Part shown: positions 1 to 48,828 of the stretch, one piece after another
Layout of the letters: every line of letters starts with the position of its first letter
Position numbering within the stretch: position 1 is the first letter of the stretch
From: a virus
Taxonomy: Duplodnaviria; Heunggongvirae; Uroviricota; Caudoviricetes
Reading direction: 5' to 3' (one strand)
DNA length: 48,828 nucleotides
Virus record (IMG/VR): IMGVR_UViG_3300045988_154803
Program-made: the position numbers and the translations under genes
The notes under the pieces: generated by a model
The model's input: only the letters and a program-made list of their open reading frames with translations
Database searches by the model: none
What the model was told of the DNA's origin: nothing

Positions 1-51
1 AGATCTACACCTATTAAGTCGTCGGCAGCGTCAGATGTGTATAAGAGACAG
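1..51. other. Sequencing adapter remnant (Illumina P5 tail AGATCTACAC + 8-nt index-like CTATTAAG + Nextera read-1/Tn5 mosaic end TCGTCGGCAGCGTCAGATGTGTATAAGAGACAG); not biological
   Basis: Exact match to the canonical Nextera read-1 adapter and ME sequence as known; genomic sequence resumes at base 52. Confidence 0.9.
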
Positions 52-109
52 ATATAATTCTATGACACTTGCCAGAGAGCATCATGCAATTGGATACCTC
101 CATTGCACT
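52..109. repeat. Terminal overlap: identical to 48771-48828 (circular contig closure)
   Basis: Direct comparison of the first post-adapter 58 bases with the last 58 bases of the window. Confidence 0.9.
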
Positions 110-647
110 GGTTGCCCCAGCCATGCCAGCCATCAGGTAAATCACCGCGAGCAAACAGCTCAATACGAGGAACATCACCTAACAGCCTTACCAGCTTGTC
201 ACGGACCACATCAGGCTTCCGAGAATGCTCCAGACGAGGCGATGTAAACGACTGAATGATCCCCGCATCAAGACGTGTCGGTAGTTTGCCTTTCACTGCA
301 AACAAGCAATCTTCACTGTTTGCACGAGTCATATGCCCCATCCCCATCACCAGCTTATCTGGTTGTCGGCTACCACATTTGTTCCATGTGAAGCCCTTCA
401 TGGTCATCAGCCTGAATCCCCATGCTTTCACCACCAGCAACGCTTCTTCTGGCTGAGTCGGAACCCACCACATGGCCAACAAACACGATTCAGGATTAGC
501 AAGCTGCCAGACAGGAATACGAGCAATCTCCTCAGCTTTCATCGTTGGATACTTAAAACCAGCGCCACGATTCCCATCCTTACACTTGTCTTTGTATTCC
601 CAGGGGGGATCTGCATAAATCAGATTAAACAATGCAATTGCCTCCAT
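60..647 (-). CDS. MT-A70 family (Dam-like) N6-adenine DNA methyltransferase
   Basis: 195 aa; catalytic DPPW motif in context LIYADPPWEY typical of MT-A70-type adenine methyltransferases. Confidence 0.65.
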   Translation of the reverse strand: MEAIALFNLIYADPPWEYKDKCKDGNRGAGFKYPTMKAEEIARIPVWQLANPESCLLAMWWVPTQPEEALLVVKAWGFRLMTMKGFTWNKCGSRQPDKLVMGMGHMTRANSEDCLFAVKGKLPTRLDAGIIQSFTSPRLEHSRKPDVVRDKLVRLLGDVPRIELFARGDLPDGWHGWGNQCNGGIQLHDALWQVS

Positions 648-955
648 GTTAGTTGTGCCTCCGGCGCTTATCTCCGGCAGTCATAACGCTGGTCAGCCCT
701 ACAGCAAACACAACGAAAAGGGCACTAACCAGACTGATTAATGCCCTTGCCTGTTGTGTGCCGGATATCGCCCGACAACGCTGTTTTGGTAACACGGCTA
801 CAGTTCCGCGCCGCTCCAGCTTTTACCCCTTTGCGGATAACAGGCCCTGCCTGTAACTTAGCCCCACGTTCGCCCGAAATGCGCACCAGGCACGCATAAA
901 GATGAGCACGAAGGAAGTAACTCCACCGCGCTTATCTTTATGTGTGAGAGTGAAT

Positions 956-1031
956 TGGTGGCCCCTACCGGATTTGAACCGATGACCGTGCGATTATGAG
1001 TCGCCTGCTCTAACCACTGAGCTAAGGGGCC
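956..1031 (-). tRNA. tRNA with CAU anticodon, ileX/ileY-like (probable tRNA-Ile2 reading AUA after lysidine modification; tRNA-Met not excluded)
   Basis: 76-nt cloverleaf read by hand: acceptor GGCCCCU/AGGGGCC, D arm GCUC-AGUGGUU-AGAGC, anticodon loop CUCAUAA, T arm AUCGG-UUCAAAU-CCGGU, 3' CCA; 5' half matches E. coli ileX as recalled. Confidence 0.85.
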
Positions 1032-1041
1032 ATATTTGATC

Positions 1042-1124
1042 TGTTTGTCTGGTGTGGCGCCGCGCACGAAAATCCCAGCCAATAAATTCAGGATTTTTGG
1101 GCGCGGCGGCATATCAGACAAACA
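1042..1124. repeat. Large imperfect inverted repeat (two ~34-bp arms, ~15-nt spacer) between lysis cassette and tRNA
   Basis: Arm tgtttgtctggtgtggcgccgcgcacgaaaatcc vs reverse complement of ggatttttgggcgcggcggcatatcagacaaaca; about 29 of 34 positions pair. Confidence 0.6.
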
Positions 1125-1200
1125 TGGTTGATGCGTGCGCTCATGAGAAAAGCGCATAGAATGTTGTAACTATATATTTATATAATTATAGAAATATATA

Positions 1201-1410
1201 TTACTTGGGGCAGTTGATTTCCCATGCCCTGTTATGAGCCAGAATATCTTTCTTTGTCTGGCGGTCCATAACATCGATATCGTGATCAGTCAGGTAGATG
1301 GGCTTTACCCAATCACAGGCGGTATCAACCACCACCGGGACGCTTCCACGACTCCCGCAGCTCGCGATCAACATCGTCATCAGCCATATGGTTAACACTC
1401 TGCTGTACAT
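1201..1410 (-). CDS. o-spanin (Rz1-like outer-membrane lipoprotein); true start probably internal (MTMLIASCG)
   Basis: Lipobox LIASC followed by short Pro-rich periplasmic segment; overlaps 3' end of the i-spanin in another frame. Confidence 0.55.
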   Translation of the reverse strand: MYSRVLTIWLMTMLIASCGSRGSVPVVVDTACDWVKPIYLTDHDIDVMDRQTKKDILAHNRAWEINCPK

Positions 1411-5573: not shown

Positions 5574-5872
5574 GCCACAGCCCCTCTCAACGGCTTAACT
5601 TTGGCTAATAAGGTGTTAAACAACATGGAGTTAGGATTCATGCCAAATGGCAATTCCGGTTTAGCGGAGTAGTACAGGCAACCATTTATTTTCCTGGTTG
5701 TTATCTGTCCTTCGGCAACCATGCTTCTCAGTCTGCAACGCATAGAGTTCTGCGACACACCAATGTGCTCCGCGATTACGTCCACTTTTGAACATGGGTG
5801 ATCGGTCAGGAAATTAATCACATCTTGGGGGTTAATAATTTTGCGTTTCATTGTCGAGGCGTCCTTATACAT
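5570..5872 (-). CDS. Small winged-helix-like DNA-binding protein (candidate regulator)
   Basis: 100 aa; helix-turn-helix-like VIAEHIGVSQNSMRCRLRSMVAEG; preceded by AT palindrome promoter. Confidence 0.4.
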   Translation of the reverse strand: MYKDASTMKRKIINPQDVINFLTDHPCSKVDVIAEHIGVSQNSMRCRLRSMVAEGQITTRKINGCLYYSAKPELPFGMNPNSMLFNTLLAKVKPLRGAVA

Positions 5873-5897
5873 TTATATAAATATATAATTCTATATA

Positions 5898-5928: not shown

Positions 5929-6996
5929 TCAGGCTTTCAATAGCGATTCTTTTAGATATCGGGCATCAGCCAGGGCGTTTGGAGTAATCTTGCGAACCCA
6001 TGCATTACGGGTTGGACTCCACTTAAAGGCGCGTGATTTAAGCAGCGAACGAATGTTTGCCTCTGGTTTGCCAGGGAAATAAAACAGGATGCGGTTATCC
6101 TCTGGATCTATCTCCATAGAAAAGCCGTCGTATTCTTCGCGCTGTGCTCCTGTTACAGACTTGACCGATTCAAGCTCCTTAATACGGCTCTGTAGTCGTT
6201 TGATTTCGGCGTTATTGTTGCTCAGTGCGTATGAAGGGAATCCGATGCGCCCACAGAAATCTCCGGCCAGTAACTCTTTGGCTTCGCTTTCTGTAAACCT
6301 GAGATCGATTAATGCAGAAAGCTGCTGTAATTGGTCTTTTTTGTATTTGCGAATGGCCTTATTTGCGGCCTTCATTTTGACGTGTGACTTCATGCAGCCT
6401 TGCAGCTTACGAAGCAACTTAAATAGCGCATCAGGATCATCAGACGAAATTCCATTACGACCAACACCTGCGGCTTTGCTCTCGTAGTGTGATGCTTTAC
6501 TTTCGCATTCAACAAACGCTTTTCTTAATAACGCATCAGCTTTAGACAAACGGCGGCGATGGCCTTTCGCGCTATAATGGTCAACTAAAATCGGCTGGCC
6601 TAACGGGATCACATCCAACAGGTCATGCGCTCGCTTATGCGCTACCGCACCTTCTTTTCTGGCTTTTTCTGCACGAGCAATATATCGGGCAAGACGCGCG
6701 TTCTGGCGTTCCTGATAGGTGTTTACGTAATCATCTCCGCGCTGCTGCTGTTCAAGCCATGCTTTGCGCAGATCTTCTGTTACGTCCACCAGCTCCGCAG
6801 GGATACAACCAGTTTGGGCTTCATAAGAGTAACCATCCTCATAGATGCGCCCATCGTCTTCAACAAAGAAAAAGGTTTCGTGCTCATCGCTTTTGACCAT
6901 ACGACCATTAACATGGCGTAATAGGTAGCCAGTATCAGTGCTTAACAGGCTGTTAGGGTTGTTGATCCAGTCAGAAATAATTTCTTGTTTATTCAT
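5929..6996 (-). CDS. DUF3560-like protein (unknown function; family seen on plasmids)
   Basis: 355 aa; motif GQPILVDHYSAKGHRRR recalled from DUF3560; first gene after leader cassette A. Confidence 0.5.
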   Translation of the reverse strand: MNKQEIISDWINNPNSLLSTDTGYLLRHVNGRMVKSDEHETFFFVEDDGRIYEDGYSYEAQTGCIPAELVDVTEDLRKAWLEQQQRGDDYVNTYQERQNARLARYIARAEKARKEGAVAHKRAHDLLDVIPLGQPILVDHYSAKGHRRRLSKADALLRKAFVECESKASHYESKAAGVGRNGISSDDPDALFKLLRKLQGCMKSHVKMKAANKAIRKYKKDQLQQLSALIDLRFTESEAKELLAGDFCGRIGFPSYALSNNNAEIKRLQSRIKELESVKSVTGAQREEYDGFSMEIDPEDNRILFYFPGKPEANIRSLLKSRAFKWSPTRNAWVRKITPNALADARYLKESLLKA

Positions 6997-7112
6997 CAGA
7001 TTTCTCCGGTTTAACCAGGGCGGGTATCGCTCGGTTTCGGGTATAACCTTAGGAAATTTTTTCCCACCTGTAAAGCGCTTTTTATATAAATCTATAATTA
7101 TATATTTATAGA
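6997..7112 (-). promoter_or_regulatory. Conserved promoter/5' leader cassette, copy A
   Basis: Near-identical to 16461-16580 and 48667-48785; ends at the start codon with GGAG RBS; contains TATAATTATA palindrome. Confidence 0.6.
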
Positions 7113-7165
7113 TTTTCGATGTTACCGATGTCTACACACCATCAAAACAGCTCAAAATGACACTT

Positions 7166-10830: not shown

Positions 10831-10842
10831 CCCGCTTATATG

Positions 10843-10948
10843 ATTATAGATTTATATAATTATATAAAACGCTTTTCATCAGCCAAAAAGTTGGTTATGC
10901 TTACCTCGTTCTATAAATATAGATTTATAGAATTATATAACCAAACAC
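10843..10948. promoter_or_regulatory. parA upstream region with AT palindromes (candidate centromere/operator)
   Basis: Perfect 16-bp palindrome TTATATAATTATATAA at 10843-10858 and a related repeat CTATAAATATAGATTTATAGAATTATATAA. Confidence 0.5.
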
Positions 10949-11617
10949 ATGGAGTCTCGACAAATGACTATCTCTGTAGGTATTTTCAACGGAAAAGGCG
11001 GCGTAACCAAATCAACAATTGCCCGTGCTTTAGCAGTTGCTTATGCAAAGGCTGGCTGGAATGTATGCCTGATCGATATGGATGTGCTTAACGGAACGGT
11101 AACGCGTTGGGTACAACGCAGAATGGCCAACAATATCGAACCAGCAATCGCGGCGCAGCCGTGCGGCACACCATCACAAGTCCAGAAAATCATCGAATCA
11201 GAAGTATACGACCTGGTTATCGTTGATGGCGGTGCCTACGCATCTGAATCAGTACCGAAGCTCTCTGAATTTCTGGATATGGTTATTTTGCCAACCAGAT
11301 TCTCTACCGATGACCTGGAAACCACCGTTAACACAGCTCACGGCATCGTTAAAAAGGGTGTACCAATCAAGAAAATTTGCATGGTGTTTTCCGGCGCGGC
11401 TGAAAACGAAGCTGACTATATTGAAGCCCAAGAGTACCTGGCTAATACGCCATACTTTGTTGTCGATAAGTACATTCCCCACAAGCCAGCTCTGAGCAAA
11501 GCTCAGGATAAGGGCTTAAGCCTCATTGAGTGCTCATACGTTGCGCCACGCAAAAAGGCAGACGACGTTATTCAGGGGATTATCAACCAGCTTGAGGCTC
11601 TGACTACTGCCGCGTAA
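10949..11617 (+). CDS. parA: ParA-family partition ATPase (small, type Ib-like); likely start at 10964
   Basis: Deviant Walker A GKGGVTKST; ~217 aa without N-terminal HTH. Confidence 0.85.
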   Translation: MESRQMTISVGIFNGKGGVTKSTIARALAVAYAKAGWNVCLIDMDVLNGTVTRWVQRRMANNIEPAIAAQPCGTPSQVQKIIESEVYDLVIVDGGAYASESVPKLSEFLDMVILPTRFSTDDLETTVNTAHGIVKKGVPIKKICMVFSGAAENEADYIEAQEYLANTPYFVVDKYIPHKPALSKAQDKGLSLIECSYVAPRKKADDVIQGIINQLEALTTAA

Positions 11618-11629
11618 TATATAATTATA
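11618..11629. repeat. TATATAATTATA palindrome between parA and downstream RHH gene
   Basis: Perfect 12-bp palindrome. Confidence 0.6.
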
Positions 11630-11660
11630 GTTTTATAGATTTATATAAGAGGGGATACAC

Positions 11661-13037: not shown

Positions 13038-13229
13038 ATGACAAACTTACCCCATGACTATTACGTCAACCTCGTAAAGATCCTTCTCAAGAAAGCCTCA
13101 TACGCCGATAAACTCCGCCTGGCTGAAATCATCGAGCGCGAAGCTATGCGCATCGCCAGCAACGATAACGCTGTTTCTGACGCAAAAATCTCCCTCGTAA
13201 CCAAAGTAGTTATGGGAGGTACAAAATGA
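13038..13229 (+). CDS. Small protein upstream of antirepressor
   Basis: 63-aa ORF with stop/start overlap (ATGA) to antirepressor. Confidence 0.4.
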   Translation: MTNLPHDYYVNLVKILLKKASYADKLRLAEIIEREAMRIASNDNAVSDAKISLVTKVVMGGTK

Positions 13230-14368
13230 AAACGCTTCCGACCGTTAACACCCTACAGCCTATCCTGCATAACCAGATCCCCGTTATCACTAGTGAACTT
13301 CTGGCGCAGTTATACGGAACAAAAATCAAAAACATTTCTGATAACTTTCTGAACAACACGACGCGATTCATAGCCGGAAAGCATTACTTTAAAATTGAAA
13401 AAAACGAATTACGCGAGTTCAAGAACAGACCTGAAACAATCGGGTTAGTTGGTAAAAATGCCCGCTCCCTAATTCTCTGGACCGAACACGGAGCAGCCCG
13501 TCACGCCAAAATGCTCGAAACCGATCAGGCTTGGGATGTGTTCGAAAAACTGGAAGACTGCTATTTCAACCAGAACGCACAAACGGCCGCGACCGTAACC
13601 GTCTCACCAAACAATGCTCGTGAGGTTGTCGATACGCTCAACGCCAAACCGATGTTTTACATTAAAGTGTGCAACAACGAGCCACTCACAACCTCAGCCG
13701 ATGTTGCCCAGGCATTCAGCACCACAAACAATTCCATCGTTATGGCCATCGATGCGTTACGCATTCCTCGCACAGCTGCGGCGCGTCATTTCTTTAAAGA
13801 GCAACGACCGTTGGAAGGAAGCGACCGCGAAATAACAATCTATCGCATGACAAAAGACGGATTTACCTTGCTCATGGAAAGTATCGACGGTCCAGGCGTG
13901 AAGGATATCAAGCTGGCCTACATTGAAGCCTTTAACGCTATCAGCAGCGTGTTAAAAACACAGTACGAGCGCGATCTGGCTAAACGACTGTACCAGGAAA
14001 AAACGATTATCCGCGCGGCAACAGAGCATAATCGGCTATTAACGGAACCGAACTACAGGAAGGAACTAATCAAGGAGTTTGACAAGGCAACAGGGAAAAC
14101 CAAAGCGGCGCTAAGTCTGCCAGCAATGACTCAGGAAAATGTGATATCAGCCTTACTTCTTGATCTGCTCAGAAACGCCAGAGCACTTATCAGCTTTGAC
14201 GAAAACCTGAATCCTCAGCTCAAGCTACTACCACCGACAGGCAAAGTAGTCGACCAGGCTGATCACAACAGCATACTCAGCGTACTGGATGCAAACCTGC
14301 CAGCCAGGACACTACAGGATCTGATAAAAACATGTGCTGATAAGCTGGCACAGAAAAGCAGACCATAA
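13226..14368 (+). CDS. ant: Antirepressor-like protein (ORF6N/KilA-N-type N-terminal domain + Rha-like domain)
   Basis: N-terminal IPVITSELLAQLYGTKIKNISDNFLNNTTRFIAGKHYF; central PLTTSADVAQAFSTTNNSIVMAIDAL. Confidence 0.7.
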   Translation: MKTLPTVNTLQPILHNQIPVITSELLAQLYGTKIKNISDNFLNNTTRFIAGKHYFKIEKNELREFKNRPETIGLVGKNARSLILWTEHGAARHAKMLETDQAWDVFEKLEDCYFNQNAQTAATVTVSPNNAREVVDTLNAKPMFYIKVCNNEPLTTSADVAQAFSTTNNSIVMAIDALRIPRTAAARHFFKEQRPLEGSDREITIYRMTKDGFTLLMESIDGPGVKDIKLAYIEAFNAISSVLKTQYERDLAKRLYQEKTIIRAATEHNRLLTEPNYRKELIKEFDKATGKTKAALSLPAMTQENVISALLLDLLRNARALISFDENLNPQLKLLPPTGKVVDQADHNSILSVLDANLPARTLQDLIKTCADKLAQKSRP

Positions 14369-15130: not shown

Positions 15131-15176
15131 CTTTCTGGCGCTTACATTACACCACCATAAAACGATCCGTAAAGGA

Positions 15177-15449
15177 TCATTTGATCCCTTGTTCCAATTC
15201 TGCCGACACTTTAACCTTTTCCCATACAAGGGTTTGCAGCCTTAACAGAATCGCATCTTTATCAAGGTGTGAAAGATCCTTAACCATATCGTCAAACGAC
15301 AGAACGCGAATGGCCATCTCAATGACCCTCGGCGGCTCCCCCTTCTCATATCGCTTATATGTAGCCAACGATATCCCAAACTCTTCGGCTGCTCGCTCCT
15401 GCGTCCAGTTCATCCCACGACGCCATAATTTCAATTCGTAACCCGTCAT
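15177..15449 (-). CDS. XRE-family HTH transcriptional regulator
   Basis: LKLWRRGMNWTQERAAEEFGISLATYKRYEKG. Confidence 0.6.
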   Translation of the reverse strand: MTGYELKLWRRGMNWTQERAAEEFGISLATYKRYEKGEPPRVIEMAIRVLSFDDMVKDLSHLDKDAILLRLQTLVWEKVKVSAELEQGIK

Positions 15450-16079: not shown

Positions 16080-16460
16080 TTACTTAACGAGGAATAAAAA
16101 TGGTTTATTGTTCGGCGGTGTAATCGGGGCTGGCTCGCTTTTGCTCATGCGATCAGTGTACCAGGCCAACTCCTTGTCAAAGTAAGCCTGATTAAAATAG
16201 GCCATGAATGTAGTTTCAAATCCATAACGACCGCTAATACGCAGCATCTGATTGCCGTTCTCTGTTTCCAGATATACCTGGGCACGTTCCTGATTCTCCT
16301 TCAGCCAGGTTAAAGCCTCATCGCATGAGGACACACGATACTCATCATCGTAGCAGTCATCGATGCGGCTTGAGGAAGAACGGCAAATCACGCCAACAGA
16401 ACCAGCCAGGATAGTTTGAATTTTAAGGAAAGCGTTTTTGCGGATTTTAATCATGCTCAT
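16080..16460 (-). CDS. Hypothetical protein (first gene after leader cassette B)
   Basis: 126-aa ORF starting exactly at end of conserved leader. Confidence 0.5.
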   Translation of the reverse strand: MSMIKIRKNAFLKIQTILAGSVGVICRSSSSRIDDCYDDEYRVSSCDEALTWLKENQERAQVYLETENGNQMLRISGRYGFETTFMAYFNQAYFDKELAWYTDRMSKSEPAPITPPNNKPFLFLVK

Positions 16461-16580
16461 CGGGTTATCTCCGGTTTAACCAGGGCGGGTATCGCTCGGT
16501 TTCGGGTATAACCTTAGGAATTTTTTTCCCACCTGTAAAGCACTTTTTATATAAATATATAATTATATAATTCTATGAGC
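16461..16580 (-). promoter_or_regulatory. Conserved promoter/5' leader cassette, copy B
   Basis: Near-identical to copies A and C; palindrome TATATAATTATATA at 16556-16569. Confidence 0.6.
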
Positions 16581-16582
16581 AC

Positions 16583-16607
16583 AAAAAAGCCCCTTTGCAA
16601 CAGGGGC
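16583..16607 (-). terminator. Intrinsic terminator after higA-like gene
   Basis: Minus strand gcccc-tgttgcaaa-ggggc followed by T6. Confidence 0.55.
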
Positions 16608-18732: not shown

Positions 18733-19713
18733 TTAATGTTGGAGTGATTTCCAGGTCTTTCTTAGCCTGTTATAACGCTGCTCAACGAGGGATCGTAAAT
18801 ATGCAAGGTCAGCACCTGGATACATGCCATCAGCAAATTCCTGGCTAACCTCTCTAGTGATTTGATGACGAAGTTCGGCCTCTCCCTTTTCCTGAACAAG
18901 ACGCGCAGCTCTCTCCGCTGCTTTCTGTTTTGCCTTTATCTCTCTGGCCGTCTTCCTCTGACGCCATACATTCTCCATCTGCTCCTGAATAACAATACGC
19001 TTATAATCAGCCTCCGTTATCGCTTTTTTAAGCCGTTCGCTATTCTTCGCATTGAAGTAATTAAGTTTCTGGCTAACCGCACGTCTCCATGCTTGTTCAG
19101 TAATACCAACGATTTCCAGCAGTTGATCACGAATCTCTATTTTCGCTGGCCAATACTGTTTATTCACCCGATCCCAGCGACGTTCATAATCAATAAAACC
19201 TAACGCTTTCAGTTGCGACAACGCCCTTGTACAGCGCGTTATAGACTTGTTCCCAGCTTCGGATACGGTAGACAGGCCGCAAAAATCAGCCAACGCCTCA
19301 GCACTGGCCAGAACCCGCTTAGAAATGATGTTTACATGGTGCAAAATCGCAGCAATCACAGCATTAATCGCCCGACGACGATGCTCGTTTATCCGGCGTT
19401 TCCGCTCTGACGGTTGATTAACGTAGAACGCAACCTCACACGTAAGATCACGACCATTAATGCGCTGTAAAGCATCAGATAACACCAGCGGCAGCTTGTG
19501 CGTATGGTGCTTTGGAGGCTGGAACTCCGGCGACAAATTACAAACGTAAGCTGAACGTAGAGACGGCATTGGTCTATCCATATGTTCGCTCTTGCGTCCA
19601 CGGAAAACCAACGTATAATGGGAGTTGTCGAGGCGCCCATGGATTGTTTTTGTTGGTTTTCCGTGGATGTCGCAAGAAGCCCGCAGATTTATCTGCGGGC
19701 TTTTTGTTTCCAT
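18733..19713 (-). CDS. repA: IncFII-type RepA replication initiator (RepA1-like); true start possibly internal
   Basis: RRRAINAVI...GLSTVSEAGNKSITRCTRALSQLKALGFIDY aligns by eye to R1/R100 RepA1 block RRRAIDALL...GLATESAAGKLSITRATRALTFLSELGLITY (recalled). Confidence 0.8.
   Translation of the reverse strand: METKSPQINLRASCDIHGKPTKTIHGRLDNSHYTLVFRGRKSEHMDRPMPSLRSAYVCNLSPEFQPPKHHTHKLPLVLSDALQRINGRDLTCEVAFYVNQPSERKRRINEHRRRAINAVIAAILHHVNIISKRVLASAEALADFCGLSTVSEAGNKSITRCTRALSQLKALGFIDYERRWDRVNKQYWPAKIEIRDQLLEIVGITEQAWRRAVSQKLNYFNAKNSERLKKAITEADYKRIVIQEQMENVWRQRKTAREIKAKQKAAERAARLVQEKGEAELRHQITREVSQEFADGMYPGADLAYLRSLVEQRYNRLRKTWKSLQH
19679..19710 (+). terminator. Plus-strand intrinsic terminator antisense to repA 5' region (candidate CopA-like RNA 3' end)
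   Basis: gcccgcag-atttat-ctgcgggc followed by TTTTTGTTT. Confidence 0.4.
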
Positions 19714-19894
19714 ATCTGGTCATTTTCCAACCAGACACCCACAATCATAACCACGTTACGTGGTTTTCAGAGAACTCTACCACAACACTTTCGGTCATGC
19801 ACGAAGTCTCTCACTGATCGAACGATAATCCACCAGTAAAAGGATCTAAATTGGATCTCGTTTTGCGAGCATCATACTACTGGCCTAACTCCAG

Positions 19895-40230: not shown

Positions 40231-42087
40231 CTATATGGTTACGCCTTTACTTATAACTCTACGGCGTCTTCTACGTATACCTGACGAGTTCTGCACATAC
40301 ACATTACCTCGCATTTCCTGTTCGGCAAGCCAGTTAAAATTAGGGTTCAGAATTTCCATCGCGGCAGTTGCATAGTTACGGCAATCAAGAGGCTCGTTAC
40401 GCTCGTAGACTTTCACCCACTTTTCTTTTGTCTGCCCATTTTTATATTCAAATATTTTCTTCTCTGATAATAATCCTTTAAAGTATTCGGTATCATATCC
40501 TCTGTCAGAATCTAATGGGAAATGCATATAACCAGGACCAGGATCATGTAGTTTAATTCTTGCCATGATGGTCCCTTTACCATCATCAACCCCCAAATTA
40601 AACAACATAGCACCCACACGGTTATTATTACTTGGCTTTCCTATAAATGGTAAACCTACCCCACCACGCCCCCTGATAGAGTATATTCGCCTTGATTCTC
40701 TCGGCTTAGTAAAGCGATATACCTCTGTCGTAAAATGCCCACCAGAGTCAATACAAACGGAAGAAATCTGTAATTTTCGACCGTCACGGAATGACCAGCT
40801 ACGGAGTAAGTATTCATCAAGTTGTTTCCAGACAACATCTTGTGCGGGATCACCTGGGAATATTTTATATTCTATCCCCCATGACTCCTTACCTTTTCCC
40901 CAACCGACCAATTCACAAACTAAATACGTGTCCTGTACGTCAACACCAGCACTTAACAATAAAACATCATCTGGTAAAAACTCTTCAAACCTTATTCTGC
41001 GTTGCAACAAGTATTCAGGATCGATATCGTCTTTAGCATCCTCTTTCCATGGCTCACCCAGCTTAAGGTTAATAAACTCCATTAATCCATTTTTATCGCG
41101 GTTTCTGGTTGCTTCCGTAAATTCTTCAACCAGCTCTGACAATGCAACCCACGGGGAGTAAAGACTGTTAATATGAAAACCAACAATACCTTTAACTCCA
41201 GTATGTTCAGCTATCCATACCCCCTTCGCCAACCAATCAACGTCTGGTTTACCAGATCCGCGCATAATCCCGCCGCACTCACAGCACTCATATCTGGCCG
41301 TTTCCGGTAACGCCTCACCTGAATCGCTCTTATCCCATCTGACTTGCGACCATTTCATCACCTGCATGGTGCCACAACATGGGCAAGGAACATGGTAGTA
41401 ACGCTGATCGGAGAGCTTAAACCACTTGTGGATTTTGCTCGTTTCCTCCAAAACAGGAGTAGAAACAAAAACTTTCTTACGATTATGAAAGTTGGTAGTA
41501 CGCTGAATACCTAGTTTTAGTGGGTCGCCCTCCTGCGTCACACCGTAACGATCAATCTCATCAGCTAACAGTATTCGAATTGGCCTGGATGCAAGACCTG
41601 CTGGGGAATTAGCACCAACAAGTGCTATATATCCACCAGCGTAATGCTTCATACGTATAGTCGTGCTGGACTTTTTGGCTGCACCGCGCCCCTCTTTCCC
41701 TTCATGCAGCTTGTGTTTCAAACCAGGGGAATATTTGAACGTCGGATCAATACGCTCTTTTGAAAAAGCCTCAGCCGCCTCTACCGTTGGATAAATCATC
41801 AACTGAGGAGATGGCTCCTGATCTGCAAAGTAACCCATAACATTTAGCTGTAATTCGGATTTACCAATTTGCGAGCTACATTGCATCACTACTGTTTCTG
41901 TATCAGCGTCACCAATAACATCCATTGGTTCACGCAAATATGGCACTCGGCTTGTACGCCACGGCCCTGGCTCTGGAGACGTTCCCGGCGCTACATGACG
42001 ATACTTATCAGCCCATTCGGAAACAGTTAGCCGTGATTTAGGGCGAAGCGCACGGAAAAAAGCGGTGCTCCATACTGTTTCGCCCAT
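40231..42087 (-). CDS. Terminase large subunit (lambda gpA-like)
   Basis: 618 aa; N-terminal ...TVSEWADKYRHV resembles gpA ...TAVEWADANYYL; ATPase/nuclease size class. Confidence 0.9.
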   Translation of the reverse strand: MGETVWSTAFFRALRPKSRLTVSEWADKYRHVAPGTSPEPGPWRTSRVPYLREPMDVIGDADTETVVMQCSSQIGKSELQLNVMGYFADQEPSPQLMIYPTVEAAEAFSKERIDPTFKYSPGLKHKLHEGKEGRGAAKKSSTTIRMKHYAGGYIALVGANSPAGLASRPIRILLADEIDRYGVTQEGDPLKLGIQRTTNFHNRKKVFVSTPVLEETSKIHKWFKLSDQRYYHVPCPCCGTMQVMKWSQVRWDKSDSGEALPETARYECCECGGIMRGSGKPDVDWLAKGVWIAEHTGVKGIVGFHINSLYSPWVALSELVEEFTEATRNRDKNGLMEFINLKLGEPWKEDAKDDIDPEYLLQRRIRFEEFLPDDVLLLSAGVDVQDTYLVCELVGWGKGKESWGIEYKIFPGDPAQDVVWKQLDEYLLRSWSFRDGRKLQISSVCIDSGGHFTTEVYRFTKPRESRRIYSIRGRGGVGLPFIGKPSNNNRVGAMLFNLGVDDGKGTIMARIKLHDPGPGYMHFPLDSDRGYDTEYFKGLLSEKKIFEYKNGQTKEKWVKVYERNEPLDCRNYATAAMEILNPNFNWLAEQEMRGNVYVQNSSGIRRRRRRVISKGVTI

Positions 42088-42092
42088 GAGGT

Positions 42093-42653
42093 TTATTCTT
42101 CCTGCTTAATAAATCGGGATTCCTGGAGCGCCTGAAGCGCAAAATTAATCTCGTCTTCAATAATGCGTTCGATCTCCCTGGCTGTTTTGCCTTCACAACG
42201 GGGAGCTGCTCTTGGAGCAATACTAAATAAGCGGCTACGCAATTCATTAGCTGCCAGAAATGCATCATCCCTGACCGCATCTTTAGCGATGAGAGAGCCT
42301 TCCTTTTCTTCAAATTCAAGGCGTTTCAGCTTTGCCTGATAAATTTTTTCTGCGGTCTTAGCCTTGTTGAATTGCACCGCAACACCGGAAGTACCACCAG
42401 CTAATCCGGCATCATCAGCGGGTAACTCTGGTTGTTCCGAAGATATCCCATGCCCTCTTTTTCCATTTTCAGCAGATACCTCACGACCAACCTGTCGGCT
42501 CGCTTCATAAGCCGCACTGGCTTTATCAAAATCCAGCTTGCCGCTTTTCAGCACTGGAATGCGACCGGAACGACAGAGCTTCGTAACCATTGCCGGAGAA
42601 ATACCTTTCCGGCGAGCAAACTCTGACTTACTGACGATGGCCATTACTTGCAA
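42093..42653 (-). CDS. Terminase small subunit (N-terminal HTH)
   Basis: 186 aa; MAIVSKSEFARRKGISPAMVTKLCRSGRI HTH; upstream of large subunit. Confidence 0.6.
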   Translation of the reverse strand: MQVMAIVSKSEFARRKGISPAMVTKLCRSGRIPVLKSGKLDFDKASAAYEASRQVGREVSAENGKRGHGISSEQPELPADDAGLAGGTSGVAVQFNKAKTAEKIYQAKLKRLEFEEKEGSLIAKDAVRDDAFLAANELRSRLFSIAPRAAPRCEGKTAREIERIIEDEINFALQALQESRFIKQEE

Positions 42654-43234
42654 CCATTAGCAAGATACTGAACAAATCCCTCATGCGTTTCATGCGCGTC
42701 GTGGTACTGACGATAAACATCCAGCAACAATGCAATTTCCATATCCGTCGCGGGAATACGTTCTTTATCAATAGCCAGGTACTTAATTTGAACAACAGGG
42801 GAAGAATTATCGTCTTCTTCCTGCGGCTGTTCATCGCTTAACATTTCGTCAAGCTCTGCATCATTAAACCCAAGCAGATCAATATCAAAATCATCATCCA
42901 TTAACTCTTTGACTTCTTCGGCCAGAAGCTGCATATCCCAGCCAGCATTTAAGGCCAGCTTGTTATCTGCAATCCTGTAAGCCTTCTTCTGTTTTTCAGA
43001 AAGGTTACTCAACCGAATCGCCGGAACTTTATCCATTTCCAGAATTTCGGCTGCTGCAAGCCGACCATGCCCCGCAATCAGTTCATTCTTTTCATCGATC
43101 AGCACAGGATTAGTGAAACCGAACTCACGGATACTGTTCACCAACTGTTCAACCTGCTCATCTGAATGAGTCCGTGAATTTTTGGCGTATCTGAGCAGCT
43201 TACCGACTGGTAAATATTCGATTTTTAGAGCCAT
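42644..43234 (-). CDS. ParB-like nuclease domain protein (paralog 1)
   Basis: ParB/Srx N-domain: ...TNPVLIDEKNELIAGHGRLAAA...; paralogous to 45901-46524. Confidence 0.8.
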   Translation of the reverse strand: MALKIEYLPVGKLLRYAKNSRTHSDEQVEQLVNSIREFGFTNPVLIDEKNELIAGHGRLAAAEILEMDKVPAIRLSNLSEKQKKAYRIADNKLALNAGWDMQLLAEEVKELMDDDFDIDLLGFNDAELDEMLSDEQPQEEDDNSSPVVQIKYLAIDKERIPATDMEIALLLDVYRQYHDAHETHEGFVQYLANGCK

Positions 43235-43791
43235 TTTTTAACCGCCATAACACAACAGGTTAAAGAAAACTGTTTAACTTATTGATACTAAAAGAGAAAA
43301 ATGACGATCTTTTTACTCATAAAAAATCACACAAACCAGCATAATCATCTGATTTTATTAAGTTTTTATAAGTAAAAAGGATCTTGAGATGGTGTTTTGG
43401 TTAAAATATTGGATGTATTTGCATGATTTATAACGATTTTTATCAGAACAACATCACATTGGTTAAAGATCTGCGCGTATCTTGATGATCTAAAAGAAAA
43501 TTTTCTACTTTCTTTTTACCAGCACAAATACAGCAAAAAATCACGTTTTCCCGATATTTTTCAATGAGATGAGTAAATTTCTTTTACCGCAACTTTTAAC
43601 CTAACTTTTTTCACGTTTAGCTAGCCGAACATCGGGGTTCGAATGACCCGCATCCAACGCTTTTGGCCAGAAGGACCCAATTCTGCCGGACGATGAAACG
43701 ATGCTCGTGCTCCCCCACAGACAGCCAGCGAGCGACGCTACAGAACACAGTGAATACACTCTGCATAACAACACCATCAACCACACGATGA
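43235..43791. promoter_or_regulatory. AT-rich 557-bp non-coding region upstream of packaging operon (candidate late promoter and/or cos site)
   Basis: No credible ORF; AT-rich with homopolymer runs; lambda-type terminase implies a cos site nearby. Confidence 0.3.
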
Positions 43792-44511
43792 TTAACGAGA
43801 GAAGGTCTTAGAAAGAATGTCATCAATAGCCTTTGTGACTTCATCAGCAAACGCATCCTCACCAGCACGCAGCGCCACGCCATGCCAATCAAGACGCTGC
43901 GAATAGTTAGGTTGCTGGATAAACGTAAGGATCAACGTAGGACGCCGCCCAACGCGCTGCCAGACGCCTGGTTGAAGCGGGTTACTTGTACCAGGTCGAA
44001 CAACAAAAAACTCCGTAGGCTTGCCCTGACGGCGATTTTGATGCGCATCTCGCTGAACTCTTAGGCCAGATAAGACCTGCTGTAATTGCCCCCGCGAAAT
44101 ATTCCCGTATTTGTCCAGCTTTGCGCCGGGACCAGGAGCAAGCTGCCAGCCGTTAGGCAAATATCCACCAGCCCTTAGCGCCCCTTCTGAGCGTTTGTAC
44201 TGTCGTTGGCCACCTTCGATTTGCGGAGTCAACGTTACAGGGGCTGGCGTTCCTCCCCATTCACGAGCATACACAATGGCTGTAGGATCACTCTTCTTTG
44301 CGGCCAAAACGTAAGTAGAGTTCTGAATCCACGGCGTGGGCCTGTCAAATACCCGATTAATTTCATTCTTAATCGCAGCCTGAGAAGCCTTTGCCGTTCT
44401 GGTTGCCGCAAGCGCCATTGCGAACGGCAATTCGCGTTCTTCAAGGCGCTGGAGTTGTCGTTGAATATCCTGAGAAGAAAAATCCATCTTTATCTCAATT
44501 CTGTCAGCCAC
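43792..44511 (-). CDS. Hypothetical protein
   Basis: 239-aa ORF between methyltransferase fusion and non-coding region. Confidence 0.45.
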   Translation of the reverse strand: MADRIEIKMDFSSQDIQRQLQRLEERELPFAMALAATRTAKASQAAIKNEINRVFDRPTPWIQNSTYVLAAKKSDPTAIVYAREWGGTPAPVTLTPQIEGGQRQYKRSEGALRAGGYLPNGWQLAPGPGAKLDKYGNISRGQLQQVLSGLRVQRDAHQNRRQGKPTEFFVVRPGTSNPLQPGVWQRVGRRPTLILTFIQQPNYSQRLDWHGVALRAGEDAFADEVTKAIDDILSKTFSR

Positions 44512-44527
44512 CAGCGCCTCCTACACA

Positions 44528-45907
44528 CTACTTAATCAACGGCCGGAAAGCCGCCAGCACATCATCAGATCGTCCGATTGTTGAACCACCAGGCAACGGC
44601 AACTCAAACTCAAAACGAACAGCTTTCTCCAGACTCGCCCAACTAAGGGAATCATCGTTAATGACGTGCAAATACCAGCTCTTACAGTTGAATATTGACC
44701 GCTTAATCCTGAAACCATGTACACGACACAACTGCTTCACTTCATCATCAGAGTGAAACTTCTGGTAAAACCAGTGCCCCTTCCGGTACAACGCGGTAAA
44801 ACCGTTATGATCAATAAAATAAAGCCGGCTTTTGGAACTCGCCGCTTGTGTTTGCTTCAGGACTGTTTCCAGCTCTCCACGGCTACGACCAGAAAAGAAT
44901 ATTGACCCACCAGCTTTACACAGGCCTTTTAGAACCGTCAGAACGGACCATTCAGCCTCGACACTATCGACCGAGTTCAAAACGCTATCGCAAATCACGT
45001 AGTCGTAACGCCCTCGCGTTTTTAAGTCGTCCACCAGCGTATCAATCATCCGGTTTGTTGCGGCCCTATCCAGAGTGTTTCCAGCGCCCTTACGGCGGAA
45101 AAGCTCGAGATCATGCAGGTTATATCCCTTTGCCCTGAGCATTCGCGCGTAGTCTCCCTGCCCCGAACCAAAATCAATTCCTCTTGGCGTCTTGGCAATG
45201 ATCGGGAGGATCAACGACTCATACAGATTTGATTTCAGGCTGCCACCATTACGCAACCGCATAAGCTGCGCATACGTCTGGATGTATGTTGTTTTCTCCA
45301 GATGAGAATACTCAAATACACCATAAGTTTTATTCAGATAACTTTGGTATTTTTCCTTCTCAACATCAGGGATCACAAACACCGTTAGCGGTGTGCGCGT
45401 CATTTTCGCTGCTAATGCATACTGAGCACAGTGAATAACCTCACCAGACTGAGTAGCAACACAACCACCCCACGGACCATACTTGATAACCAGTTCCGCT
45501 ATGTTCTTTCGAACATATGCCATTTTCGCGCGCATATTGCCTGAGATCTGGCTTGCCGATACCTGAACAAAACCATGCTTATCTTCCAGACCGGACACCC
45601 TGCAACGCTCATCTCCGCTATCAAAATCCGTTCCGTTATGCAGTTGGTTAAACCGTACTTCGTCGTATACCGTCGTTTCACAGGGCAACACATACACCGC
45701 AGCACGCGTTATTCCCAACTTACGTAGCGCCTTCGTCCTTTGGTGTCCCGCCACCAGCAAATCGCCGCGCACTATCAATGGCTTCACAAGCCCCAGCTCC
45801 CTGACGCTTTCCGCCAGCCTCGCAAGATCATCCTCACCGATAAAACGCGGGTTATATTCCGCGCCGCGTAGGTGCGTTATGTCGTAATTGAGGTGAAGCA
45901 TCAGCAC
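44528..45907 (-). CDS. ParB N-domain fused to class I SAM-dependent methyltransferase
   Basis: N-terminal ...LVKPLIVRGDLLVAGHQRTKA (ParB-like); C-terminal GIDFGSGQGDYARML ... DYVICDSVL (Rossmann motif I/post-I); no DPPY/W motif. Confidence 0.65.
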   Translation of the reverse strand: MLMLHLNYDITHLRGAEYNPRFIGEDDLARLAESVRELGLVKPLIVRGDLLVAGHQRTKALRKLGITRAAVYVLPCETTVYDEVRFNQLHNGTDFDSGDERCRVSGLEDKHGFVQVSASQISGNMRAKMAYVRKNIAELVIKYGPWGGCVATQSGEVIHCAQYALAAKMTRTPLTVFVIPDVEKEKYQSYLNKTYGVFEYSHLEKTTYIQTYAQLMRLRNGGSLKSNLYESLILPIIAKTPRGIDFGSGQGDYARMLRAKGYNLHDLELFRRKGAGNTLDRAATNRMIDTLVDDLKTRGRYDYVICDSVLNSVDSVEAEWSVLTVLKGLCKAGGSIFFSGRSRGELETVLKQTQAASSKSRLYFIDHNGFTALYRKGHWFYQKFHSDDEVKQLCRVHGFRIKRSIFNCKSWYLHVINDDSLSWASLEKAVRFEFELPLPGGSTIGRSDDVLAAFRPLIK

Positions 45908-46524
45908 ACCTCCCCAGCCAGCAATGCGGATACAAATCCGATATAGCTGCCATTATCATCAACATAACGAGACACCGCGCAGTCAAAACGATCCGCTTCC
46001 TCATCCGTTGCCGGGATTTTATGACCTCCAAATGACAGGTACTGAACTTTTACGCCTGATTTGGCCTCATCCTTCTCAAATGGGATATCCATACCCTCTG
46101 TGTCATCGTAGACCGCCGCACTCAATAAGTTATCCAGTTCGCGCTGAGTAAAACCAATTGAGTCCAGAGCAAAATCATCGGCCGCAAGATCTGCAAGCTC
46201 CGCGCTTAACAGCTCTTCATCCCAACCAGCATTCAGCGGAATACGGTTGTCGGCCAGACGATATGCCTTCTTCTGATTCTCCGTTAGCCCTTCCAGAACA
46301 ATGCAGGGAACATCATCCATCCCCAACTGAGTGGCCGCAGCAATTCGACCATGACCAGCAATTACAACGTTGTTCTCGTCTATCAGGATCGGATTAGTCC
46401 ATCCGTACTCCTGTATGCTGGCAACAATCTGATCTACCTGCTCCACGGAGTGTGTGCGAGCGTTCTTTTCATAACCAATCAACACAGAAAGTGGTAAAGA
46501 AACCACATTAAGATGTTTTGTCAT
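45901..46524 (-). CDS. ParB-like nuclease domain protein (paralog 2)
   Basis: ...TNPILIDENNVVIAGHGRIAAA...; overlaps start of fusion gene (coupled). Confidence 0.8.
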   Translation of the reverse strand: MTKHLNVVSLPLSVLIGYEKNARTHSVEQVDQIVASIQEYGWTNPILIDENNVVIAGHGRIAAATQLGMDDVPCIVLEGLTENQKKAYRLADNRIPLNAGWDEELLSAELADLAADDFALDSIGFTQRELDNLLSAAVYDDTEGMDIPFEKDEAKSGVKVQYLSFGGHKIPATDEEADRFDCAVSRYVDDNGSYIGFVSALLAGEVC

Positions 46525-48400: not shown

Positions 48401-48666
48401 TCATCATCTCCTGCCGCACATACAACCTCACAAAAAACATCAGCGGAATGTTTCTTTTTGAATGAATGGCGCTCAAAACCGCACTCAATATCAGGCGCAA
48501 AAACATCCACCACATACGGTCTTTCAGAATGTTTGTTTTCCCAACGATAAACCGTAGTGACGTTGAAATGTTTTAACGCTTCACGGAACTCAACGCTGCC
48601 AGTCAGGTTTTTTGAGGTCAGGTATTGCAGGAGGTTTTTTACTACTTCACGGTCTTGTACTTTCAT
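48397..48666 (-). CDS. Hypothetical protein (first gene after leader cassette C)
   Basis: 89-aa ORF starting exactly at end of conserved leader. Confidence 0.45.
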   Translation of the reverse strand: MKVQDREVVKNLLQYLTSKNLTGSVEFREALKHFNVTTVYRWENKHSERPYVVDVFAPDIECGFERHSFKKKHSADVFCEVVCAAGDDE

Positions 48667-48785
48667 CGGGTTATCTCCGGTTTAACCAGGGCGGGTATCG
48701 CTCGGTTCCGGGTATAACCTTAGGAAATTTTTTCCCACCTGTAAAGTACTTTTTATATAAATATATAATTATATAATTCTATGAC
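48667..48785 (-). promoter_or_regulatory. Conserved promoter/5' leader cassette, copy C
   Basis: Near-identical to copies A and B; palindrome TATATAATTATATA at 48762-48775. Confidence 0.6.
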
Positions 48786-48828
48786 ACTTGCCAGAGAGCA
48801 TCATGCAATTGGATACCTCCATTGCACT
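48771..48828. repeat. Terminal overlap identical to 52-109
   Basis: Direct comparison. Confidence 0.9.

Follow-up and report, generated by a model that had tools for sequence, protein, structure and literature searches.

The gene studied here lies near one end of a 48,828-nucleotide stretch of viral DNA (the window) and is predicted to encode an orphan SAM-dependent N6-adenine methyltransferase of the MT-A70/beta class, with little beyond the catalytic core. The gene is real, intact and selectively maintained, with dN/dS values of 0.04–0.13 that indicate purifying selection. To judge from its relatives, the product is most likely a stand-alone, Dam-like DNA methylase that would methylate GATC within the element itself. 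Some members of the family have been characterised, and the gene is an ordinary one: in dozens of phage-plasmids of E. coli, that of ATCC 25922 among them, RefSeq already annotates it as 'MT-A70 family methyltransferase'.

Family, catalytic motif and fold of the protein

The 195-aa open reading frame with a DPPW motif that had been described in the original prediction was confirmed on the minus strand, with DPPW at residues 13–16 (Table 1). An alternative start codon, TTG at 632, gives a product of 190 aa, and the equivalent position is the start in the Salmonella relatives. Profile, motif, fold and homologues together gave full support to the assignment to the MT-A70-type adenine methyltransferases. 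The Pfam search that had been proposed as a check matched MT-A70 (PF05063) with 83.4 bits against a cut-off of 23.9 (E 2.4e-23), spanning profile positions 1–172 of 172 and residues 7–180 of the 195 in the protein. Additionally, the protein matched PHROG 359 'DNA methyltransferase' (E 2.7e-102) and the PADLOC Type II MTase model MTase_II (1.7e-68), and the NCBIfam search of the same 195 residues returned no match. The profile support for the family far exceeds chance.

The catalytic motif IV could be read directly from the nucleotides, and its location near the N-terminus is that expected for the circularly permuted beta order. D13, P14 and W16 were invariant in an alignment of seven proteins, with P15 present in six of them; when 46 proteins were aligned, P14 and W16 remained invariant, and D13 and P15 were at least 90% conserved. 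Sequence matches in the PDB were MTA1 and METTL3, with the DPPW, SxKP and ELFAR motifs aligned and DPPW falling on the DPPW of ciliate MTA1. The AlphaFold2 model of the protein (pLDDT 80, pTM 0.82), in which the likely substrate loop at residues 101–107 is disordered, was compared with the PDB by Foldseek. The solved structures with the lowest E-value were those of the mRNA methylase METTL3 (E 9e-15, TM 0.69–0.72), and the Tetrahymena DNA-6mA enzyme MTA1 was matched with a TM of 0.72–0.73. The METTL3–METTL14 and ciliate MTA1 complexes thus share the fold and the catalytic motif (TM about 0.7, identity 22–25%), but they are obligate eukaryotic heteromers with extra domains and partners, unlike the protein in the window. 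The homologue search retrieved 6409 proteins, mostly of 187–200 aa and with a single domain.

The dN/dS ratio was 0.044 against the copy in ATCC 25922 and 0.125 against the Salmonella copy. A restriction enzyme partner was sought in the neighbourhood and with PADLOC, PHROGs and the PGAP annotation of the whole element, and none was found; the PGAP annotation of the whole 48.5-kb E. coli copy contained no endonuclease. The gene is flanked by a tRNA, lysis genes and small uncharacterised ORFs. The gene is therefore an orphan, with no cognate restriction endonuclease alongside.

Setting of the gene in the phage-plasmid

The element, a 48.7-kb enterobacterial phage-plasmid, has an IncFII-type RepA and ParA, together with a lambda-like head and a P2-like tail. 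Its sequence shares 99% identity with that of Yersinia phage vB_YpM_39, and it was found in 68 complete E. coli genomes, across which the methyltransferase gene is intact, with no pseudogene flags among the entries listed. A copy with 99% identity is present in E. coli ATCC 25922, and 'MT-A70 family methyltransferase' is the RefSeq name of the 99% identical protein. In the GenBank records of Yersinia phages vB_YpM_39, 41 and 44 the gene is labelled 'hypothetical protein'. The literature search retrieved no paper on vB_YpM_39, nor on phage-plasmids together with MT-A70.

The gene had been placed at the contig junction, with its end inside the terminal overlap. The overlap was confirmed, as the last 16 codons and the stop fall within those 58 bp. 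The junction is an assembly artefact, since bases 1–51 are an Illumina sequencing adapter and bases 52–109 repeat the other end of the window (Table 1). The alignment of OR545053 to the window begins at base 52, and the same 195-aa ORF and the 112-bp spacer to the next gene are contiguous in OR545053 and in the E. coli plasmids.

Table 1. Positions in the window of the methyltransferase gene and of the features discussed in the text.
Feature	Position	Strand	Remarks
Illumina Nextera i5 adapter	1–51		AGATCTACAC-CTATTAAG-TCGTCGGCAGCGTCAGATGTGTATAAGAGACAG; contamination, not phage sequence
Terminal overlap, 58 bp	52–109		Exact repeat of 48771–48828; marks a circular assembly
Methyltransferase CDS	60–647	minus	195 aa; ATG start (647), TAG stop at 60–62
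Catalytic motif IV, D13-P-P-W16	600–611	minus	Nucleotides 611 to 600, GAT CCC CCC TGG; read directly
Conserved non-coding leader	648–854	minus	Directly 5' of the methyltransferase gene; from sequence conservation
Terminator-like hairpin, then UUUUCGUUGUGU	718–748	minus (748 to 718)	Consensus scan; 70 nt upstream of the ATG
tRNA gene, anticodon CAT	956–1031	minus	ARAGORN, Met; PGAP, tRNA-Ile; Rfam tRNA, 67 bits
AT-rich array, TATATAATTATA-like, 8-bp periodicity	1162–1209		Upstream of the tRNA and methyltransferase; candidate promoter/operator
Cassette C, second copy	6992–7113		87% identical
Cassette C, third copy	16457–16578		98% identical
TerL	40231–42087		Downstream of the ParB_N genes
TerS	42093–42653		Downstream of the ParB_N genes
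Three ParB_N genes and a 239-aa ORF	42644–46524	minus	Context only; Pfam, PHROGs
ParB_N gene 3	42644–43234	minus	Pfam
ParB_N gene 2, 459 aa	44528–45907	minus	Also a Methyltransf_23 domain; Pfam
ParB_N gene 1	45901–46524	minus	Pfam
Cassette C, 122-nt repeat	48663–48784	minus	AT-rich array, leader, then ATG of the next ORF (48666)

Downstream of the gene, the leader cassette C that had been noted beside it proved to be a real repeat, whose AT-rich end overlaps the methyltransferase stop codon. Three copies were found in all, each ending at the start of a minus-strand ORF. On the circular map, the first ParB_N gene is reached 2.3 kb from the methyltransferase stop (at 46524) and the third at 5.5 kb (43234), so the predicted distance of about 4.6 kb to a ParB/methyltransferase cluster was roughly right. 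The gene coding for both a ParB and a SAM-methyltransferase domain spans 2.9–4.3 kb past the stop. Its 459-aa product has the class-I SAM motif, and no (D/N/S)PP(Y/F/W) amino-methyltransferase motif was found when this protein was checked for one. Five small ORFs and the promoter-like cassette separate the methyltransferase from the ParB genes, and the start of TerS is 6.1 kb away.

A diverged Salmonella phage-plasmid keeps the same succession, from lysis genes through MT-A70 and small ORFs to the three ParB_N genes and TerS/TerL; its lysozyme gene belongs to another Pfam family (Phage_lysozyme) than the one here (Glyco_hydro_108). In other phages the gene is found elsewhere: it adjoins int in phiV10, 66FD and the Stx phages, and it is part of the nin region of Erwinia phage 59, the record of which cites the epsilon15 adenine methylase as a homologue. 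A close homologue in a lambdoid prophage is also far from any ParB-terminase locus.

Upstream, the gene had been described as immediately downstream of the tRNA. It is indeed downstream of it, but not immediately: the gap measures 308 bp and contains the terminator-like hairpin and the strongly conserved leader. The tRNA was absent when sought in the Salmonella relatives and is therefore not a conserved partner of the methyltransferase; a coupling between the two was rejected on this basis.

The leader is 93–95% identical to that of the Salmonella relatives, while the synonymous sites of the CDS differ at a pS of 0.67, and it is 98% identical to that of the ATCC 25922 plasmid, compared with a dS of 0.10 in the CDS. 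The leader may function as a promoter/operator, as an attenuator or as a small RNA. The Rfam scan yielded no family for it, but only the tRNA, an antisense match to the tRNA and sub-threshold chance matches (rydB, 24.7 of 50 bits; miRNA models on the long hairpin), and the z-score of its fold was only −1.95. The leader was present in 0 of 54 other MT-A70 loci searched in GTDB, and it was consequently rejected as a general companion of MT-A70 genes. Between the methyltransferase gene and the closest promoter-like array on its upstream side stands the terminator-like hairpin. Compensatory changes preserve the stem of this hairpin (AAGGGCA../..UGCCCUU versus AAGAGCAC../..GUGCUCUU), and its loop has a 36-nt insert in Salmonella; covariation can be assessed only for this stem, because there are just two diverged lineages. 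The motif of the array further upstream has 27 matches in the window, versus 0.23 expected; the array belongs to repeat family D1/D2 and is also kept in the Salmonella relative.

Studied relatives and the probable target

The closest studied homologue is the Stx-phage enzyme M.EcoGV / M.EcoPA8orf6770P (gp5 of the Stx2a phages PA8 and P13374), with 72.6% identity over 175 aa; the PA8 protein is 99% identical to that of the O104:H4 phage P13374. Like the protein studied here, it is a phage orphan of the MT-A70 family with the DPPW, SxKP and ELFAR motifs, and the two fall in one clade. By contrast, it has 208 aa with a distinct C-terminal tail that the 195-aa protein lacks, and its gene adjoins int/xis, whereas the gene in the window lies between lysis and packaging genes. 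M.EcoPA8orf6770P binds PNB-2, a winged-helix protein that is co-transcribed with it and targets the enzyme to 16S rRNA (PMC10810198). In that study, the enzyme alone was all but inactive on DNA in vitro, even when unmethylated GATC DNA was offered, and together with PNB-2 it preferred 16S rRNA; a C-terminal tail of ~27 aa was proposed as necessary for PNB-2 binding, and a tail-less isoform lacking PNB-2 was also described (PMC10810198). M.EcoGV is quoted in two later papers as a GATC methylase in vivo, by overexpression (PMC10810198 and PMC6602927, both citing Fang 2012), and REBASE predicts GATC for many relatives (PMC10810198).

When PNB-2 was compared with the window by tblastn, the best match covered 14 aa (E 0.8), and no homologue was found; nor was any found within 2.5 kb of the gene at 54 other genomic loci. 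Among the 69 loci searched, PNB-2 was present only in PA8 itself and in the Klebsiella phage ST15-VIM1phi2.1. After WGNQC, the protein in the window continues for 14 residues that are unrelated to the PA8 tail. With this short C-terminus and no PNB-2, it matches the tail-less, PNB-2-less isoform (PMC10810198). A homologue of the N-terminal ORF6N domain of PNB-1 (13226–13573) was also considered as a partner and rejected, being a common phage antirepressor module located 12.6 kb away. PNB-1 was excluded as a partner by the authors of the PA8 study themselves.

Outside the phage-plasmid lineage, the closest homologue in a named phage is phiV10 p33 (77% identity). Both phiV10 and 66FD are Uetakevirus phages with an 'adenine methylase'. 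The p33 protein is a single-domain MT-A70 protein as here, but it has 216 aa with a longer C-terminus, and its gene lies in the early-left operon beside the integrase gene.

Two other MT-A70 orphans, encoded on a phage or a transposon, have been connected with GATC. PhiBZS1_p32 of Serratia phage BZS1 made dam- plasmid DNA resistant to MboI and sensitive to DpnI (PMC7556043), and M.EfaBMDam of Tn1549 is presented in the same paper as the Dam-like representative of the prokaryotic MT-A70 group (PMC7556043, citing Radlinska 2005). PhiBZS1_p32 is 42% identical to the protein in the window. An insertion of 23 residues that follows the TWxK strand in enzymes of the BZS1 type is missing from the clade studied here, so the GATC specificity may not transfer. 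The alpha-class Dam of E. coli and the Dam enzymes of the T1/HP1 type possibly share the GATC target but are unrelated in sequence; phage T1 Dam has the same phage-orphan lifestyle. Membership in the T1/HP1 group was rejected: T1 Dam matched PF05869 (1.7e-70), the protein in the window matched MT-A70 only, and BLASTP between them gave an E of 0.18.

Homology to M.EcoGV and PhiBZS1_p32 points to GATC in DNA as the target, and the lack of both a PNB-2 homologue and a PA8-type tail suggests an enzyme that works alone. Beta-class enzymes are generally homodimers. From these comparisons we infer a DNA substrate, GATC specificity, dimerisation, a time of action and a biological role as follows. The enzyme would act alone, probably as a homodimer, with the target adenine flipped into the DPPW pocket, and would methylate GATC sites in the element's own DNA with the same specificity as host Dam. 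This would probably take place as the element replicates lytically, ahead of packaging by the adjacent ParB/terminase module. The progeny genomes would be fully methylated whatever the Dam capacity of the host, and would resist methylation-sensitive restriction enzymes that cleave GATC.

Several observations count against this reading. The hosts E. coli and Y. pestis already have Dam, so that a second GATC methylase would be of doubtful benefit; a terminator-like hairpin lies upstream of the gene; and M.EcoPA8orf6770P was nearly inactive on DNA in vitro. GATC is also under-represented in the window (134 sites, O/E 0.62), although these counts do not discriminate between the hypotheses. On the supporting side, the m6A motifs reported for ATCC 25922, which carries the gene, are only GATC, RTAC(N4)GTG and GAGACC/GGTCTC (PMC12679398). 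Four of the five motifs reported for this strain match its REBASE records; GAGAYC, the remaining one, was put down to an overlap of GAGACC with GATC (PMC12679398). No unexplained motif is left for this enzyme. However, this methylome would be explained equally well if the gene were silent in the plasmid state or if its product did not act on DNA.

Alternative readings and significance

An enzyme that methylates 16S rRNA or another stable RNA instead of DNA, modulating host translation or phage-plasmid induction, is quite unlikely in our estimate, although its nearest studied relative, the PA8 catalytic subunit, is negligible on DNA when alone and prefers 16S rRNA with PNB-2 (PMC10810198), the best structural match by E-value acts on mRNA, and a methylome with no unexplained DNA motif is compatible with a target other than DNA (PMC12679398). 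The RNA preference of the PA8 enzyme is conferred by PNB-2, which is absent from the window and from the 54 other loci, as is the tail proposed to bind it from the present protein. Moreover, the modified rRNA base was not named even in the PA8 study, other tested prokaryotic MT-A70 enzymes act on GATC in DNA (PMC7556043), and the neighbouring tRNA, missing in the Salmonella relatives, lends no help. A DNA adenine methyltransferase of non-GATC or relaxed specificity, active in the lytic cycle only and giving the progeny broad protection from restriction, is unlikely. The protein is a catalytic core with no separate target-recognition domain, the disordered substrate loop fits such a reading, and phage beta-class enzymes of relaxed specificity are known, such as M.EcoGII (PMC7544214) and the Serratia prophage OS31 enzyme (PMC7556043); with lytic-only expression, a new motif would be missing from the methylomes of lysogens. 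However, the closest enzymes with a reported DNA specificity are all linked to GATC (PhiBZS1_p32, and M.EcoGV and M.EfaBMDam as quoted in later papers), as are the REBASE predictions for many relatives (PMC10810198). An inactive remnant or a non-catalytic subunit, as in the paralogues METTL14 and MTA9 with their eroded motif IV (PMC7544214), is extremely improbable given an intact and conserved DPPW, the low dN/dS and an intact gene across the E. coli genomes.

The protein might also be the catalytic half of a split ParB-methyltransferase, in which a ParB_N protein would bind DNA and recruit the MT-A70 protein, coupling methylation to packaging. We regard this as very unlikely, and as an add-on to the Dam-like explanation rather than an alternative to it. 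The two domains are not fused here, as the protein has a single domain and its gene does not adjoin the terminase. ParB_N proteins match PHROG 21315 (415 aa) at 24–94 and the MT-A70 protein matches it at 238–407, which indicates that some other phages have the two domains fused. Partners that bind nucleic acids are often required by MT-A70 enzymes (PMC10810198, PMC7544214), DNA modification in the course of packaging has been predicted for the methyltransferases encoded at ParB-terminase loci (PMC4738411), and the synteny with ParB_N and TerS/TerL genes is kept in the Salmonella relative. On the other hand, the homologues in phiV10, 66FD, the Stx phages, Erwinia phage 59 and the lambdoid prophage are far from ParB-terminase genes, a separate promoter-like cassette and five small ORFs intervene here, and no sign of co-variation or interaction was found. 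It is likewise quite doubtful that this tail-less enzyme works with a partner other than PNB-2 (e.g., ParB_N) or on an RNA target and, separately, that its expression is gated by the conserved 207-nt leader and terminator hairpin, as a lineage-specific cis-regulatory RNA or a small RNA without an Rfam match.

The original prediction went further than the family assignment, which stands, and suggested an anti-restriction programme shared with the ParB cluster; this part is plausible only. The conserved gene order in the Salmonella phage-plasmid and the PHROG 21315 fusions favour the ParB link, whereas the unrelated locations of the gene in other phages, the repeat cassette in between and the 459-aa protein without an amino-methyltransferase motif speak against it. 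As for anti-restriction, the closest biochemically studied homologue reportedly favours 16S rRNA over DNA once its partner is bound (PMC10810198), and it is not obvious how a GATC methylase would serve this purpose in hosts that are Dam+.

The GenBank annotation of the gene in Yersinia phages vB_YpM_39, 41 and 44 could be updated. The Stx-phage enzyme is a GATC DNA methylase in one study and a PNB-2-dependent 16S rRNA methylase in another, and an enzyme without the tail and without PNB-2, in a tractable phage-plasmid, provides a natural control for this dispute.

The MT-A70 gene and its setting

The minus-strand ORF at window 60-647 had been predicted to encode a 195-aa MT-A70-type protein with a DPPW motif, and the Pfam search confirmed this: the match to MT-A70 (PF05063) covered the whole 172-position model and scored 83.4 bits (curated cut-off 23.9), and DPPW occupies residues 13-16 (nt 611->600). 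The protein also matched PHROG 359 "DNA methyltransferase" (2.7e-102) and the PADLOC Type II methyltransferase model (1.7e-68); no model was matched in the NCBIfam search. The top PDB sequence matches were ciliate MTA1 (2.7e-13) and METTL3 (about 7.5e-7), with DPPW, SxKP and ELFAR aligned. The AlphaFold2 model (pLDDT 80, pTM 0.82, disordered only at residues 101-107) was closest, among PDB structures, to METTL3 (E 9e-15) and to MTA1 (TM 0.72-0.73), the DNA-6mA enzyme of Tetrahymena. Therefore, given the profile, motif, sequence and predicted-fold matches, the family assignment is secure and membership of MT-A70 is a near certainty.

The family is well known and the gene is ordinary, with an annotation already in place. 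Homologues at E<=1e-10 numbered 6409, mostly Enterobacterales single-domain proteins of 187-200 aa; RefSeq names the gene "MT-A70 family methyltransferase" in the E. coli copies, and the Yersinia phage records list it as a "hypothetical protein". Two start candidates were found, ATG 647 and TTG 632; GGAGG lies 8 nt before the TTG, and the Salmonella genes begin at the equivalent of 632. No restriction endonuclease was found in the element among the annotation, PADLOC and PHROG matches, and the methyltransferase is therefore an orphan.

The gene is not truncated at the contig junction, since the same ORF and the same 112-bp spacer are contiguous in the Yersinia phage vB_YpM_39 (OR545053; 99.7% identical to window 52-1200) and in E. 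coli plasmids. Window bases 1-51 are untrimmed adapter (Illumina Nextera i5, index CTATTAAG), which should be masked before the "ends" are analyzed, and bases 52-109 are identical to 48771-48828; the assembly is therefore circularised, with 48,719 unique bases.

The element is a phage-plasmid; comparison with annotated relatives indicates a lambda-like head and a P2-like tail. Of 5426 complete E. coli genomes, 68 contain a near-identical copy as a separate replicon of 46-52 kb, and such copies also occur in 61 PLSDB plasmids; one of the copies is the 48.5-kb plasmid in E. coli ATCC 25922. All of the genes around the methyltransferase lie on the minus strand. Upstream, the fourth ORF of the 2807->1325 group and an embedded lipobox-like ORF (1410->1201) are interpreted as a spanin.

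Features of the element and of the methyltransferase region
Feature	Position	Strand	Remarks
Two holins, GH108 endolysin, fourth ORF (PGAP "hypothetical protein")	2807->1325	minus	first in transcription order
AT-rich array, 8-bp periodicity	1209->1162		after lysis genes
Long imperfect hairpin	1125->1043		arms ~35 bp; between lysis genes and tRNA
tRNA, anticodon CAT	1031->956	minus
Conserved 207-nt leader	648-854	minus	terminator-like hairpin 748->718
Methyltransferase gene	647->60	minus
122-nt cassette	48784->48663	minus	after methyltransferase; five small unassigned ORFs follow, the first encoding an 89-aa protein
Three ParB_N-domain genes, one 239-aa ORF			downstream of the five small ORFs; then TerS, TerL
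ParB_N + Methyltransf_23-type SAM domain protein, 459 aa	44528-45907	minus	PHROG 5475 (functionally unassigned)
122-nt cassette	6992-7113		next ORF: DUF3560 protein
122-nt cassette	16457-16578		next ORF: 126 aa
Other AT-rich arrays, 8-bp periodicity	5857-5896, 7075-7119, 10836-10948, 11617-11656, 16539-16586, 48745-48790
IncFII-type RepA	18733-19713
ParA	10949-11617
ORF6N plus Rha-domain protein, 380 aa	13226-14368	plus
XRE repressor
Gp49/HigB-HTH toxin-antitoxin pair
Hin invertase
gpA-type terminase

The tRNA was called "Met" by ARAGORN and tRNA-Ile (lysidine type, reading AUA) by PGAP; in a sample of seven ORFs, 19% of Ile codons are ATA. The Salmonella relatives lack the tRNA, which is a later insertion. 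The long hairpin is retained in the Salmonella relative, where one or more of its changes are compensatory, and its sub-threshold miRNA matches in Rfam are spurious.

Conserved leader and repeated sequences

The leader directly upstream of the start codon begins sharply at ACAGGCAGGGCCTGT and was found only in the phage-plasmid lineage of the window. Its identity to the Salmonella relatives is 93-95%, although 67% of the synonymous sites in the coding sequence differ (pS 0.67); with the ATCC 25922 copy the identity is 98%, at a dS of 0.10. Compensatory changes preserve the terminator-like stem, and there is a 36-nt insert in the loop. No Rfam family matched this block, which probably acts as a small RNA or as a regulatory leader.

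Additionally, TATATAATTATA-like AT-rich arrays (27 matches vs 0.23 expected) precede several transcription units and flank parA on both sides; they may serve as centromere-like sites or, as in P1, as the operators of a dispersed regulon. The three 122-nt cassettes are 87-98% identical, and each contains an AT-rich array and a leader, then the ribosome-binding site and start ATG of the following minus-strand ORF.

Possible relation to the ParB cluster

The original prediction was that the methyltransferase may belong to the same anti-restriction programme as the ParB/methyltransferase cluster, an interpretation that was only partly supported. In its favour, the synteny of MT-A70 and ParB_N genes is conserved in the 47.5-kb contig of a Salmonella phage-plasmid relative, which keeps the order of the window: lysis genes (here with a lysozyme of another family), MT-A70, small ORFs, ParB_N, ParB_N plus SAM-methyltransferase domain, a 238-aa ORF, ParB_N, TerS and TerL. 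Moreover, the N-terminal part of PHROG 21315 matches the ParB_N proteins and its C-terminal part the methyltransferase, so fusions of the two exist in other phages. Methyltransferases of ParB-terminase loci were predicted by Iyer et al. to modify DNA as part of packaging (PMC4738411). However, five small ORFs lie between the methyltransferase and the ParB genes, as does a repeat cassette resembling an independent transcription start, and close homologues are located far from any ParB locus. In the 459-aa protein, which is encoded between two stand-alone ParB_N proteins, a class-I SAM motif (DFGSGQG) is present but amino-methyltransferase motif IV, (D/N/S)PP(Y/F/W), is not; given also its PHROG 5475 membership, the protein is no canonical DNA amino-methyltransferase. 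Phage orphan methylases are usually explained by anti-restriction, but in Dam+ hosts the methylation of GATC offers no obvious protection.

Maintenance and substrate of the methyltransferase

The dN/dS of the gene was 0.044 against the ATCC 25922 copy and 0.125 against the Salmonella phage-plasmid relative, where synonymous sites are close to saturation. The gene is kept in place in this diverged relative and is therefore a stable component of the lineage. Across unrelated phages it behaves as a mobile accessory gene: homologues adjoin int in phiV10, 66FD and the Stx phages; Erwinia phage 59 and a lambdoid prophage have theirs in the nin region.

GATC is rarer than expected in the window (O/E 0.62, 134 sites). 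Three sites lie within 38 bp just upstream of repA (19816-19854) and three within 20 bp at 15164-15183; these clusters are possible Dam-sensitive control sites.

For the window protein, GATC DNA is the predicted substrate; the substrate of the closest studied relative, M.EcoPA8orf6770P of a Stx2a phage (72.6% identity), is disputed. M.EcoPA8orf6770P is highly similar to M.EcoGV (PMC10810198), in agreement with its 99% identity to the protein of O104:H4 phage P13374, and overexpressed M.EcoGV methylated GATC in vivo according to Fang 2012 (cited by PMC10810198 and PMC6602927). In vitro, M.EcoPA8orf6770P alone had negligible DNA activity, and its 1:1 complex with PNB-2, a winged-helix protein encoded upstream, preferred 16S rRNA (PMC10810198). 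A shorter isoform without the last 27 residues is found in non-STEC bacteria, in strains without PNB-2 (PMC10810198). The window protein is of this short-isoform kind: no PNB-2 homologue was found in the window, and its C-terminus is short and unrelated to the M.EcoPA8orf6770P tail. Nor did any of 54 further genomic loci carry PNB-2 within 2.5 kb of MT-A70. In contrast, a homologue of PNB-2 (54% identity) was detected in Klebsiella phage ST15-VIM1phi2.1 (2067-2495 of locus L009) directly upstream of a BZS1-type MT-A70 gene, so the partnership is not confined to the Stx clade. The N-terminus of the ORF6N/Rha protein is 59% identical to PNB-1 of phage PA8; this is a common antirepressor-type module located away from the methyltransferase gene.

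GATC activity was also described for PhiBZS1_p32, since DNA from a dam- host was MboI-resistant and DpnI-sensitive (PMC7556043), and, as cited there, for M.EfaBMDam of Tn1549. However, PhiBZS1_p32 is only 42% identical to the window protein and carries a 23-residue insertion that the latter lacks. A copy 99% identical to the window's methyltransferase is present in E. coli ATCC 25922, whose nanopore methylome contains GATC, CCWGG, RTAC(N4)GTG and GAGACC/GGTCTC; four of its five reported motifs are in REBASE for the strain, and the fifth, GAGAYC, was explained as GAGACC overlapping GATC (PMC12679398). All of the motifs are thus accounted for, with none to spare for the methyltransferase. An enzyme constitutively active on a new or non-specific DNA motif is thereby excluded; the result fits GATC methylation masked by host Dam, a gene that stays silent while the element is a plasmid, or a target other than DNA. 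Dimerisation has been argued to be required by beta-class enzymes (PMC7544214). On balance, we moderately favor a stand-alone, probably dimeric, Dam-like DNA methyltransferase that would act on the element's own DNA.
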